30,388 nt of DNA from a virus (Duplodnaviria > Caudoviricetes). The stretch lies in the IMG/VR virus record IMGVR_UViG_3300037604_000007, positions 1 to 30,388 of that record; one strand, 5' to 3'. The position numbers and the translations under genes were made by a program. Shown here one piece after another: positions 5,671 to 30,189 of the stretch; within the stretch, counting starts at the first letter, position 1, and each line of letters begins with the position of its first letter. The notes under the pieces were generated by a model, which made no database searches, was not told the DNA's origin, and saw only the letters and a list, made by a program, of their open reading frames with translations.

Positions 5671-6159
5671 CTACTTTATTTTTAAATTAAATTGCTCCAC
5701 AATGTACGCATTTTCAATTTGTTTACCAAGTTTTAAGTCTTTTTTTATTGCAATTTTATCCGCTTGTTCCGTTACCTTGATTGTTTTGTATTCCTTTGGT
5801 AACTGGTTCACATCCTCCACCTCAACTCGTTCAGATTTTCTTAATCCGAATGTGTTTGTTCCGATAGTAAACTCTCCGAAAGTTTGAATAGCCCCTACAA
5901 GCCTATTCTTTAGATTATGGGTAAGAGTATTGTTTCTTTTCTTCAACGCTTGTAACCTCTTTATTTCATTGTCAATTTGCATATTAAAAGCATCCTTTGC
6001 CAATATTACAGAATGGTAAGCGATTGCTTTATTTTGTAACTCATTTTGGTTAATGGTTAATTGTTGTTCAATCTCTGGAGTTATTTCTCCATCCAGTTCT
6101 TCCACTTGGTTAATTAGTTCCAAGTATTCTTGTTTGATGTCGTATAGTGTGTTTTTCAT
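5671..6159 (-). CDS. Siphovirus Gp157 family protein
   Basis: TLYDI start, coiled coil EIKRLQALKK, C-terminal DKIAIKKDLKLG..I..A..NLKIK; likely start ATG 6159 (ATGA overlap). Confidence 0.85.
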   Translation of the reverse strand: MKNTLYDIKQEYLELINQVEELDGEITPEIEQQLTINQNELQNKAIAYHSVILAKDAFNMQIDNEIKRLQALKKRNNTLTHNLKNRLVGAIQTFGEFTIGTNTFGLRKSERVEVEDVNQLPKEYKTIKVTEQADKIAIKKDLKLGKQIENAYIVEQFNLKIK

Positions 6160-6398
6160 TTGGTGTATTTTGAGATTAGTATTAAATTGTAGCATTGCCC
6201 CGATTCAATTCTTTTAACCGCTATTAGAGACAATCCTTTTCGCTTTGCATATCCCTCTTGGCTTATGTTGTGCTTAACTCTAAACGTATAAGACTCAAGC
6301 AAACAAGATAGTATCTCGTTTCTGATACTTCCTTTCGGCAAATCTTTTAGAAAAGTATCGTTATTGATACGTTTTGCAAAGTTAAATATCTTGTCCAT
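6156..6398 (-). CDS. XRE-like helix-turn-helix protein
   Basis: R..HNISQEGYAKRKGLSLIAVKRIESG pattern. Confidence 0.6.
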   Translation of the reverse strand: MDKIFNFAKRINNDTFLKDLPKGSIRNEILSCLLESYTFRVKHNISQEGYAKRKGLSLIAVKRIESGQCYNLILISKYTK

Positions 6399-6433
6399 AG
6401 TTAGTTGATTAGGTTGTTACTGATAAAAACAAG

Positions 6434-6754
6434 TTACCCAACATTTAAGTCAGGCAACTTTGCTTCTATGTGAAATTTAGGGCTTATTTGTTTCCCTCTT
6501 TGCTCTAACCAACTATAAGAATCAAGTCCTACTTTTTGCCTTATCAATCGGATGCCTCGCCAAGTCAGTTTCCCTTTGGTTATTTCGCCTTTAATTGGTG
6601 GTTCTGCCATTGTTCGTAAGGCTATTATAAATAACTCTTCTTCTTGTCTGCGAACTTCATCAAAAAAACGTTGGGTAACACTGGCTATATTTAATGCCAA
6701 GTGATCGTCAACTTGAAAGTTCGGGTGTTCAATTCTCTTTAATTCGTATTCCAT
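6434..6754 (-). CDS. Cassette gene, hypothetical protein (MEYELK...LNVG)
   Basis: The ATG lies inside the loop of the attC-like site 6670-6801; the TAA stop is part of the GTTA core at 6433. Confidence 0.75.
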   Translation of the reverse strand: MEYELKRIEHPNFQVDDHLALNIASVTQRFFDEVRRQEEELFIIALRTMAEPPIKGEITKGKLTWRGIRLIRQKVGLDSYSWLEQRGKQISPKFHIEAKLPDLNVG

Positions 6755-6801
6755 AATTTTTAGTATTAAATTTGGCACTAAACATAGCCTAAACGTTAGG
6801 G
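6670..6801 (+). repeat. attC-like site A
   Basis: GGGTAAC(6673-6679)...GTTAGGG(6795-6801); inner arms 6683-6700 and 6772-6789 complementary at 16/18. Confidence 0.8.
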
Positions 6802-6805
6802 TGCA

Positions 6806-7009
6806 TTAGTCAGTCATACTAACAGTCCATTCAAAAAACGATTGACTGTTTAGTAAATCAAAAAGCTTAGGTATTGAGTCTTTTTCTATAATCAATCCTT
6901 TACTAATATCTATTATTAGGTGTCTATTTGGTTTTTCTGTTTTTCCAGAGCCTTCTCTTAATCCTGTCACAAAAGGCATATTTTTTAATTTATCTATTAC
7001 TTCTTCCAT
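6806..7009 (-). CDS. Cassette gene, hypothetical protein, 67 aa
   Basis: ORF fills the space between GTTAGGGTGC (6795) and GCACCCTAAC (7020). Confidence 0.75.
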   Translation of the reverse strand: MEEVIDKLKNMPFVTGLREGSGKTEKPNRHLIIDISKGLIIEKDSIPKLFDLLNSQSFFEWTVSMTD

Positions 7010-7019
7010 TTTAATTAAC

Positions 7020-7153
7020 GCACCCTAACAATTTGTATAAATAATAGCCTGTTAAGGTGTCTTTTTAAAGCTATTTTGTATTTCCAAATTTAGTTTTTTA
7101 ATCAAAGTTTCTCGCTTACTTTCGGCTACACACCATATACAATCACGTTGGGC
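7020..7153 (+). repeat. attC-like site B
   Basis: CCCTAAC(7023-7029)...GTTGGGC(7147-7153); TTGTATA(7033-7039)/TATACAA(7136-7142) and TAGCC(7045-7049)/GGCTA(7124-7128). Confidence 0.78.
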
Positions 7154-7159
7154 GTAATG

Positions 7160-7369
7160 CTACTTCCACCAATAATCATTTGCATTTATGCTATTAGGAT
7201 TACTACATACTTCATTAATACTAATAGTAGAACTAAGTCGCTCATCCTTGATTAAATGGTATTCCCTGTTTTTATATTCGTAAATTAATTTGTCACCAAA
7301 TTTTTCACTATGAAATATATTAGGTGATACCTCAATAAATTTCATTCCTTTATAATAAAACCCTTTCAT
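7160..7369 (-). CDS. Cassette gene, hypothetical protein, 69 aa
   Basis: ORF lies between the cores at 7147 and 7392-7401. Confidence 0.75.
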   Translation of the reverse strand: MKGFYYKGMKFIEVSPNIFHSEKFGDKLIYEYKNREYHLIKDERLSSTISINEVCSNPNSINANDYWWK

Positions 7370-7391
7370 ATTTTCTAATTTAAACCGCTAC

Positions 7392-7524
7392 TACACACAA
7401 CAACGTATATAAGTAATGGCAGGTTATTGTTTAATTCTAAGTTTCTGTTTATCTATTTACTTTTTTCTTATTCGATAAGTAGGTGCTTTCTATCTACCAC
7501 TACTTATATACTGTACCGTTAGCC
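7392..7524 (+). repeat. attC-like site C
   Basis: ACACAAC(7395-7401)...GTTAGCC(7518-7524); arms 7405-7424 and 7492-7511 complementary at 17/20. Confidence 0.8.
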
Positions 7525-7647
7525 CACATTAGGAGTGCCTAAAAATTTATGGTTTAGCTCAGCCATGTACTCATATCCGCCCTTTTGTTTCAAAACTTCA
7601 TTCAGTTTTTTAACTTCTTCACTCCAATAATCATTTTCTTTATTCAT
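7519..7647 (-). CDS. Cassette gene, 42-aa peptide (MNKENDYW...PNVG), not in the ORF track
   Basis: Manual translation; the TAA stop is part of the GTTA core at 7518. Confidence 0.6.
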   Translation of the reverse strand: MNKENDYWSEEVKKLNEVLKQKGGYEYMAELNHKFLGTPNVG

Positions 7648-7677
7648 AATTCGTAAATTTTACATACACTATACCCG

Positions 7678-7875
7678 TTATGTACCATTAGGTAACTTAC
7701 GTATCATCCAATTAACCATATCTTTATAATTTATGCTTGTAGTCTCTTTATTACCATTATTATCCTTCGTTATTAAGGTGTCGTATTGGTATTGTTCGTG
7801 TTCTATTTTTACAAACTCTTTAGCTTCTTTACCTTTACTTTGTGCATACTGTCTAAATAATCTTCTTCCATTCAT
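7678..7875 (-). CDS. Cassette gene, hypothetical protein (MNGRRLF...PNGT)
   Basis: ATG at 7875; the TAA stop is part of the GTTA core at 7677. Confidence 0.7.
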   Translation of the reverse strand: MNGRRLFRQYAQSKGKEAKEFVKIEHEQYQYDTLITKDNNGNKETTSINYKDMVNWMIRKLPNGT

Positions 7876-7907
7876 ATTTTTTGGTTTTATTGTAGCAAAA
7901 GTTGCAA

Positions 7908-8057
7908 TCACCTTCTTTTGTCATTATCTTTTGTTTTAGTTTTTAATCCGTTACTATTCATATTGCAAATACGTTGTATGCCATTAAAGCATCGCTTGTA
8001 ACTTATTTCTTCATTTGACTTTTCTACTACGTCTAAAAGGTTTTTATAATTTTCCAT
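7908..8057 (-). CDS. Small hypothetical protein, 49 aa (MENYKNLL...), reading through the core site at 7973
   Basis: Manual translation; A-rich leader; may be a remnant. Confidence 0.4.
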   Translation of the reverse strand: MENYKNLLDVVEKSNEEISYKRCFNGIQRICNMNSNGLKTKTKDNDKRR

Positions 8058-8076
8058 TTTTCTAACATTAATTAAC

Positions 8077-8304
8077 CTAAATACTATAATACCGTATCAA
8101 GAATTCAAGTTTGTTCTTCTTCTCTTTCCAGTAATTCCACTCTGGTAGTTCAATCCGAACAAAGTACTCTATTACTTTTAGCTCTTGCCTTGCCAGTTCA
8201 ACTATATCAGCCTTACTCATTCCCTTTATCAACTCCCTTACAAAAGTAGGACTGACAGATTCGGGTAAGCTATTCCTCACTAAGTTGTATATGACCCTAT
8301 TCAT
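8077..8304 (-). CDS. Hypothetical protein
   Basis: ORF in operon position; ATG at 8304. Confidence 0.7.
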   Translation of the reverse strand: MNRVIYNLVRNSLPESVSPTFVRELIKGMSKADIVELARQELKVIEYFVRIELPEWNYWKEKKNKLEFLIRYYSI

Positions 8305-8319
8305 ACCCAAAGATGCACA

Positions 8320-8730
8320 TTAACTTTGATATTTCAAAATTATAGAGTTAGAAATTTCCTCTCTTTTGTCAGCGGTGAAATTCACCATTTTATGAGTAAG
8401 CTGGTTATTCAGTTTCCTAACGTGGTGTCTAATCTCTTTGTCAAACTCTTTGAAGTTTTCAATTTGAGTTGATGAGTGTATAATTGTAGCGTGGTCTTTG
8501 TTTATGAATTTACCTATTTTAGTAAGGCTCTCATTAGTGTAGATTCTGCAAAAGTAAGCGTACAATTGCCGGGCATAAACATACTCCCTTAGCCTTGTTT
8601 TACGAGTCTTAACTTCTTCAAAATCCATTCCTAACTCCTTGCAAATAGTCTTTAGAATTAACTCCTTGGATAAGTGGCTTAATGGTTTAAAATTCTTGAA
8701 TGTTCCAGCGTAGATGTATGGATGTATCAT
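8320..8730 (-). CDS. DnaA C-terminal (domain IV) HTH protein
   Basis: R.REYVYARQLYAYFCR.YT.ESLTKIGKFINKDHATIIHS matches the DnaA domain IV signature. Confidence 0.88.
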   Translation of the reverse strand: MIHPYIYAGTFKNFKPLSHLSKELILKTICKELGMDFEEVKTRKTRLREYVYARQLYAYFCRIYTNESLTKIGKFINKDHATIIHSSTQIENFKEFDKEIRHHVRKLNNQLTHKMVNFTADKREEISNSIILKYQS

Positions 8731-12434: not shown

Positions 12435-12496
12435 CAAATATACTATAAAATTTTTTACTCTCGATTTTTTTATGTTAATTTGCATATAAATCGAGA
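12435..12496. promoter_or_regulatory. Divergent promoter region with inverted repeat
   Basis: -7 element CAAATATA at 12435-12442 (- strand); TCTCGATTT(12459-12467)/AAATCGAGA(12488-12496). Confidence 0.55.
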
Positions 12497-19446: not shown

Positions 19447-19505
19447 CAAAAAACGACCCCCCCCTATCAAAAATATTTAAGTCTTTCTAAAGGGGGTATA
19501 AAAAC
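19447..19505. repeat. C8-TATCAAAAA...TTTCTA-G-run-TA element, copy 2
   Basis: Aligns with 4821-4880. Confidence 0.75.
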
Positions 19506-19513
19506 GGGTTAAA

Positions 19514-29736: not shown

Positions 29737-30189
29737 TCACTCTACTATTTCAATCTTATCAACATCTACTCCAAACTTTTCTGATATTTCCTCAATAGTT
29801 ATTTTTGTTTTCAATTTTCGGATGTGTTTCCAATTATCAACACAAAAAGGTTTGTTGTTTTTAAATTTTTTTCCATCCATATTCAAAACACAAACAAATG
29901 GAAATTCTGCTCCCTCTATCTTTGTTATAAATATTCTTTGTTGCTATTCAGTATCATCATCCCTAACCCCAACCAATTCCCCTCTTTCAAATTCTTCTAC
30001 TAGGTGGTTCTTAATTTCACTTGCTGGGTAGTACCACCAGTCTTCTTTAAATCGAACCCCAGATAAATCACTATCTTTATTAGAGAATTCTATTATTCCT
30101 ATTTCCCCGATGTGTTTATCCATATCGCTTATATAATGTGGGCCTTTAAACCTAAAACCTCTCACTCTTTTACCTATTAAATTTTCCAT
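29737..30189 (-). pseudogene. Phage gene of 150 codons interrupted by one in-frame TAG (29944-29946)
   Basis: The frame stays open past the TAG: ...ELVGVRDDDTE*QQRIFITKIEGAEFPFVCV...ITIEEISEKFGVDVDKIEIVE-TGA(29737). Confidence 0.75.

Follow-up and report, generated by a model that had tools for sequence, protein, structure and literature searches.

In bacterial integrons, recombination takes place on the folded bottom strand of the cassette site, which is cut within an AAC triplet, and the cassette genes lie on the top strand (PMC5027507). An insertion in the integrase IntI is essential for integron function (PMC8138268), and recombination is raised when the folded strand serves as the lagging-strand template (PMC5371416). 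Bacteroidota are listed among the phyla with integrons (PMC8618304), with one complete integron described in Bacteroidetes proper (PMC9024848). Arrays of attC-like sites (CALINs) are also found in lytic phages that have no integrase (PMC9892861); among these, Polaribacter phage P12002L carries a small CALIN in which two sites, pointing in divergent directions, were named and tested, and P12002L_attC1 was the only one of six sites not recombined by IntI1 (PMC9892861). In T4-type phages, stem-loops between small genes (PeSLs) drive gene gain, gene loss and the formation of circles (PMC2839356). In the phage genome analyzed here, we consider it likely that positions 6415-7975 form an array of the integron kind, in which three intact plus two degenerate single-gene cassettes face a docking site at 6433, and that the recombinase acting on it is borrowed from the Bacteroidota host or from a co-infecting phage.

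The window (the whole analyzed stretch of 30,388 nt) is the entire phage contig IMGVR_UViG_3300037604_000007. Genes for terminase, portal, head protease, tape measure, holin, endolysin, primase and helicase were recognized, all on the minus strand, which is G-rich, although coding bias confounds any reading of that strand asymmetry. Cultured phages with a related portal nearly all infect Bacteroidota. IMG/VR enters the contig as linear and 84% complete; because a 217-bp direct repeat with one mismatch occurs at both ends, and because the window is colinear with the complete relative G027 (25 of 37 G027 ORFs match, with order kept), it was treated as complete and appears to represent a circle of 30,171 bp. 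That this phage encodes no integrase, as the preliminary description held, was confirmed: searches of the whole window with PF00589, PF00239, the array recombinase as query and the family profile returned no tyrosine or serine recombinase (positive control: E = 2e-120). The two complete members of the lineage that were seen, the window and G027, both lack the array enzyme, and none was found in the relative L208 within its 7-kb locus, the part searched. Upstream of the array, the window also encodes a stand-alone DnaA C-terminal HTH domain protein (8320-8730) that is kept in relatives.

All six GTTR-N5-(C/A)AT cores reported for the region were present (6433, 6795, 7147, 7518, 7677 and 7973), and their spacings of 362, 352, 371, 159 and 296 bp were reproduced. 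The core motif is common on its own (23 copies on the + strand, including an unlisted one at 7950), and the weight rests on the pairing of unit ends rather than on the motif alone. On recomputation, the two ends of each intact unit matched each other at 10/10, 10/10 and 8/10 positions, and the ends brought together in each assembled palindrome matched poorly (5/10, 5/10 and 3/10), both as claimed. Two perfect 10/10 pairs within 1.6 kb arose in 4 of 1,000 Markov simulations, a frequency that applies to a region picked after the fact. A stop codon lies within 16 nt of five of the six cores, and the core at 7973 falls inside a 49-aa ORF. Another core, at 12474, was rejected as an array site: the only ORF whose stop codon it meets is a doubtful one on the reverse strand, and it has no hairpin.

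The three palindromes described earlier were called as full-length hairpins by a scanner that gave one match in 1.8 Mb of reversed sequence. All are imperfect, closed by AAC/GTT triplets and interrupted by an unpaired central spacer (5-7 nt after AAC vs 3 nt before GTT). Cassette 1, the intact unit nearest the dock (6434..6795, minus strand), carries a 106-aa gene (6434..6754, minus strand) that begins within the loop of the hairpin, continues across the GTT arm and stops at the TAA of TAA|C; its product had no match in PHROG, Pfam or NCBIfam. The attC-like hairpin A of this unit (6677..6797, minus strand) is more stable when folded from the gene strand (arms, -14.1 vs -12.2 kcal/mol), and the site around it (6670-6804, minus strand) is the only one whose whole-site fold was significantly better than shuffles (z = -2.4). 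Cassette 2 (6796..7147, minus strand) encodes a 67-aa gene (6806-7009); the left arm of its hairpin B (7027..7149, minus strand) is poorly paired, and the arm of the surrounding site (7020-7156) was not formed in the minimum-energy fold. In cassette 3 (7148..7518, minus strand; 69-aa gene at 7160-7369), in which the end match has drifted to 8/10, the arm of hairpin C (7399..7520, minus strand) does form in the fold, with a whole-site z of -0.7 (7392-7527). No extrahelical bases were present on the gene strand of hairpins A and C. The search for a repeat family uniting the three hairpins found none, and a search of 6000-8400 against Rfam yielded nothing at E ≤ 1; a Bacteroidota promoter octamer is present in one of the three hairpins and occurs 30 times on the strand. 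Five gene units had been proposed, of which these three are intact; that the remaining two core intervals, 7518-7677 and 7677-7973, are degenerate had been overlooked. Each retains only a remnant of the left arm, with the right arm absent: the first (7519..7677, minus strand) with a 42-aa ORF (7519-7647) and a best end match of 6/10, and the second (7678..7973, minus strand) with a 65-aa gene (7678-7875) and a best end match of 5/10. The left-arm remnant of the latter matches Cellulophaga phage phi39:1 over 41 bp, and five of six homologs of its gene have no called hairpin nearby. End matching therefore drops with distance from the dock at 6433 (10, 10, 8, none, none).

The limits of the cassettes were read from homologs. 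The 106-aa gene has 27 relatives among viral contigs, of which the eight closest and one distant relative were aligned over cassette 1. In L040, L042 and L044-L047, the shared DNA begins at the AAC/AAT that precedes the hairpin, takes in the loop and the gene, and ends at TAA. Up to the 3' AAC, 28-30 of 30 positions were identical, and past it 4-6 of 30; divergence on the other side sets in just before the 5' AAC/AAT, so that the breaks are sharp and only AA or AAC is common beyond the junction. A homolog of cassette 2 (L073) and one of cassette 3 (L075, with ends matching 10/10) likewise break directly after the 3' AAC. This AAC-to-TAA sharing, together with the breaks, indicates that the hairpin moves with the gene downstream of it and that crossover occurs at the + strand G|TT, as had been proposed. 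Comparison thus shows that a cassette opens, in gene direction, with the C (or T) of AA|C, continues with the hairpin, the leader and the gene, and closes with TAA. The agreement across related phages is not complete, as some changes lie away from G|TT: L043 switches 7 nt inside the box, ahead of the core, L041 has lost its unit ends, and the left junction between the window and L208 is not at a core. Over 246 phage units, own-end matching averaged 5.16/6, vs 2.65/6 for the end of another unit. Judged from these homologs, the window units are real mobile single-gene cassettes exchanged at the + strand G|TT. Cassette 1 also occurs within the recombinase-bearing array of phage G005, the gene of cassette 3 is present without a hairpin in L076 and L077, and none of the window cassette genes was found in the chromosomal stretches examined. 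It is also worth noting that hairpin B looks chimeric and is 91% identical over 148 bp to a site in Cellulophaga phage phi19:3, where it fronts another gene. A hairpin that keeps its outer boxes recurs in the window (6795-7149), phi19:3 (L037:4820-5170), L068 and contigs of runs X6 and X13, where the genes behind it are of similar length but unrelated (gene 6806 in the window, gp034 in phi19:3), as if a single cassette frame had been refilled.

The core at 6433 had been read as one more attC core, a reading that was overturned. It is instead best described as a non-hairpin, attI-like docking site (6415..6435, + strand; crossover G|TT at 6433/6434), which ranked first among 711 AAC/GTT positions under both a phage-derived model (score of 11.4, next 7.8) and a chromosome-derived model (about 13.3-13.5, next 11.1), the two scores being nearly equal; dropping the mis-picked row L135 from the phage model left it first. 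The second-best match to the chromosomal model (11.1) lies at 19488-19508, is intergenic and has no hairpins. In L208, the same dock and the HTH gene behind it stand between the same flanks and hold two unrelated units, with ends matching 10/10 and 9/10, so by comparison the dock is occupied by different cassettes in relatives. The L208 dock is identical at 16 of 18 positions to a chromosomal dock and scored higher under the chromosome model (23.4) than under the phage model (16.6). Directly behind the window dock, the HTH gene (6156..6398, minus strand) encodes an 80-aa protein with a weak match to HTH_3 (Pfam E = 0.007, below cut-off); it had no relatives among viral contigs and seven protein matches, itself included, and homology to phi19:3 gp035 was ruled out as the two do not align. 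The conserved upstream flank gene (8077..8310, minus strand) is found together with the Gam-like gene at 5671-6162 in 25 relatives, in which the gap between them is 9-36 bp (13 relatives), is 128-938 bp of other DNA (11 relatives) or contains the dock (1 relative, L208, the only one in which the HTH gene travels with it). The spot therefore also gains DNA by other routes, since 11 of the 25 relatives hold other DNA there without the dock module. In phi19:3 (L037:4780-4835), the site at which the array ends ranked first among 191 when scored with the phage docking model; a 78-aa gene comes next, and then a long phage integrase.

Read data, in the form of assembled contigs from relatives, extended these observations. 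At 6433-6436, contigs from four other studies (runs X5, X6, X7 and X13) begin, terminate or change to other sequence, and in X7 the letters past the dock look like the end of a new cassette. In one X5 contig, 6436 is joined to 8083, which looks like an empty dock, although with a 29-nt side at 85% likeness this joint is weak alone. No joints were present at the locus in runs X1, X4 and X11. Taken together, the rank of the dock, the L208 allele, the run contigs and the decay of end matches favor repeated capture at 6433 in a lineage whose complete members (window and G027) are without the enzyme. The proposal that the phage gains and shuffles early genes is thus upheld for gain and replacement at the dock, but not for early timing or for reordering within the array. 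Recombination at the array is read from comparison of assembled contigs rather than from direct observation; its present activity, host supply and single-strand folding are what we infer.

Across 29 phage records searched, PF00589 was encoded by three. In one of these, G005, 24 sites end at a dock placed before a co-directional 267-aa tyrosine recombinase, which combines PF13495 (the IntI-type N-terminal domain) with PF00589. Against TIGR02249 this protein scored 157.6, below the integron-integrase cut-off of 265, and it has about 48 residues fewer than IntI4, the insertion included (residues 172-210 span IntI4 174-260). Among viral homolog loci (39 of 42 scored, several of them near-duplicates), upstream sites were on the same strand in 36 of 39 and on the opposite strand in none, and the three misses have <400 nt upstream; a conserved non-hairpin site lies ∼50-58 nt before the recombinase gene in 31 of 33 rows, with one missed and one mis-picked. 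A homolog at E < 1e-40 was detected in 69 of 201 sampled genomes of the Bacteroidota phylum, with a dock downstream of the recombinase gene in 19 of the 30 chromosomal loci listed. All 14 extended chromosomal stretches scanned, chosen for already showing a site or dock, carry hairpin sites (up to 21 in 20 kb). By comparison, then, members of the site family stand next to a recombinase that has no IntI insertion, both in phages other than this one and on Bacteroidota chromosomes. The labels "IntI-type" and, taken strictly, "attC" were not supported, given this enzyme, hairpins without conserved extrahelical bases and antisense genes. Two other candidates were set aside: the 418-aa integrase adjacent to the phi19:3 array, which gave only a weak XerD match, and the loci from a genome scan that used the single recombinase as query, which were mostly unrelated integrases (15 loci, of which 10 were scanned and 3 had one site each). 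In one chromosomal stretch (L184, chromosome G137), the recombinase points away from the array, as in the classical integron layout, and in the 13 others it points into it. Plasmid pHH1107 (L197:6055-8076) is laid out like a first cassette of the chromosomal type, with tnpF, a homolog 46% identical to the array recombinase, then a dock-like site and then tet(X3); no full hairpin was called after tet(X3).

Every gene in the window array is reversed relative to the integron cassette layout, and the same was true of the phage family at large. A scanner fitted to phage sites of this kind picked out 318 distinct sites and 246 units in 123 viral loci. In 228 of the 246 units the longest ORF was on the folded, hairpin-first strand, and in 87 of these 228 it starts inside the hairpin; the longest ORF was on the opposite strand in 8 units, and 10 units had none. 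Chromosomal units of the same site family were canonical in 41 of 48 cases; in 6 of 48 the longest ORF was in the phage orientation, some of these being doubtful. On the gene strand, the longer spacer follows AAC and G-T oppositions exceed C-A oppositions by 420 to 25, traits that are in part products of the scanner, which rewards G-T. The first 12 bp of the arm had no bulge in 228 of 318 phage sites and in 65 of 75 chromosomal sites. The phage arrangement is a mirror image of the bacterial integron, with genes antisense to the cassette polarity. In a chromosomal array of 21 sites (L176), a few units have an ORF on the folded strand, one encoding a 182-aa protein, and these reversed units are possibly phage-type cassettes in a host array.

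Set against described systems, the array shares with integrons (PMC5027507, PMC5371416 and PMC8138268, as far as those accounts were available) a dock that, elsewhere in the array family, stands beside a tyrosine recombinase with the IntI-type N-terminal domain PF13495, as well as crossover in AAC, folded-hairpin sites with an asymmetric spacer, and single-gene cassettes with matching own ends. It differs from them in that the family recombinase is without the IntI insertion, the family hairpins are without conserved extrahelical bases and have boxes of up to ∼12 bp, and the phage gene sits on the folded strand, behind its own hairpin and facing the dock, often starting in the loop; the integron attI adjoins its recombinase, whereas the window phage has a dock but no enzyme. 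The window thus presents an attI-type non-hairpin site, AAC/GTT hairpins with a spacer and cassette footprints, but not the IntI insertion, conserved extrahelical bases near L'' or top-strand genes placed 5' of attC and read from an attI promoter. The cassette array is real and well supported; it works like an integron while departing from it in three defining features (IntI insertion, extrahelical bases and gene orientation). A CALIN, as IntegronFinder defines it, has at least two attC covariance-model hits and no intI, and intI was indeed absent from this genome. P12002L (L084) carries 10 sites of the window's hairpin family, P12002L_attC1 (30009-30055) among them, and the "bottom strand" of that site in PMC9892861 is the gene-sense strand, the same polarity as in the window. 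The published P12002L_attC2 (L084:29200-29245) is the downstream end of that array on the opposite strand and was neither called as a family hairpin by the scanner nor scored as a dock. The available portions of PMC9892861 name no docking site, reversed gene orientation or non-IntI enzyme. No description of such a dock, of reversed cassettes or of an insertion-less enzyme was found in the open-access literature of PubMed Central and bioRxiv, subscription papers being outside the scope of the search. PeSLs, as presented in the available text of PMC2839356, are sequence-conserved promoter-terminator units that recombine together, whereas the window hairpins are conserved in structure, break at a fixed triplet and end at a dock, and they contain no sequence-conserved promoter and terminator stem-loop.

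Trans supply of the recombinase, as earlier suggested, is the best reading, because the cassettes exchange at G|TT and the genome is without a recombinase of its own; the preliminary description named the host as the probable source, and we lean only modestly toward the host over a co-infecting phage. Several other accounts of the locus were weighed. The array might have been built by site-specific recombination elsewhere, have entered this lineage as one block, and now vary only by homologous or illegitimate recombination at short boxes in the manner of PeSLs, for which shuffling and mini-circles have been published (PMC2839356). That 24 of 25 relatives have neither the dock nor the HTH gene nor the array would fit such an entry, as would the off-core breaks, the hairpin frame found in front of different genes and the degenerate distal units. 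However, there are sharp breaks beyond which only AA or AAC is shared, the hairpins have no sequence in common, and in the window and L208 one dock is filled with unrelated cassettes whose ends match perfectly, an outcome not expected from homology-driven exchange; we regard this account as unlikely. A true CALIN, with attC sites recombined by a canonical IntI of the host, is a good deal less probable still. It would account for the conserved AAC/GTT triplets, the asymmetric central spacer and the cassette footprints, and virulent-phage CALINs are on record in which five of six tested sites recombined with IntI1 (PMC9892861), but the one tested hairpin of this family, P12002L_attC1, is the one that failed (PMC9892861). 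The array-adjacent enzyme, moreover, falls below the integron-integrase cut-off and is without the ∼48 residues that include the IntI insertion, the arm bulge is absent in 228 of 318 phage sites, and complete integrons are nearly unreported in Bacteroidetes in the available account (PMC9024848).

The tie between docks and a dedicated recombinase, in phages and chromosomes alike, also argues against action of host XerC/XerD on the folded hairpins, as occurs with phages of the IMEX type, which integrate through a folded single-stranded attP that mimics dif and recombines with it. XerC and XerD occur in nearly all hosts, which would suit orphan arrays, and the window boxes of 11-12 bp with a central spacer presumably resemble dif. 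In a quick tree, however, the array enzymes stood apart from three host XerC/D-like proteins (SH-aLRT of 100; the tree has no IntI row, leaves out 20 of 30 "phage" rows, one of them the MAG contig L085), and we give Xer action as little credence as a canonical IntI. Chance palindromes or terminators between small genes can practically be dismissed: the core motif is indeed common and two of the three whole sites fold no better than shuffles, but a single polarity, the footprints and the breakpoints are common to 318 distinct sites from phages and 75 from chromosomes, the scanner control yielded its single match in 1.8 Mb, and the breakpoint and footprint data already contradict such an origin.

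The preferred reading, an integron-like array served in trans, suggests how capture would proceed. By analogy with integrons, a circular cassette would fold its hairpin on the gene-sense strand, the recombinase would cut at AA|C and exchange one strand with the double-stranded dock, and replication would resolve the junction. Given this proposed exchange at the dock, new cassettes would enter the leftward operon at its downstream end, each bringing its own leader, and often its start codon, in the hairpin loop; phage promoters lying upstream would presumably drive their transcription by read-through. With distance from the dock, units would be older and decaying. If the genes are co-oriented with replication, the folded strand would be the lagging-strand template.

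More broadly, and with a little less than even confidence, we suggest that a second integron system, one without the IntI insertion, is common to Bacteroidota phages and their hosts. In it, lytic phages would keep only the landing site, parasitize the host enzyme and maintain a pool of reversed cassettes of their own, with the hairpin frame supplying the gene start. The published negative result of IntI1 on P12002L_attC1 would be explained if its cognate enzyme is the insertion-less recombinase. An IntI-type N terminus in an enzyme that is without the IntI insertion and apparently acts on hairpins without extrahelical bases would make the step from a simple tyrosine recombinase to an integron integrase testable. 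With a recombinase homolog in 69 of 201 genomes, the finding points to gene capture in a phylum where integron surveys report almost none. A single hairpin frame found with unrelated genes bears on cassette genesis and would, if true, expose how new cassettes arise. For the phages themselves, the array offers a site-specific route by which the mosaic small-gene regions of Bacteroidota phages may be assembled, in a genome of 30 kb for whose single landing site natural alleles exist.
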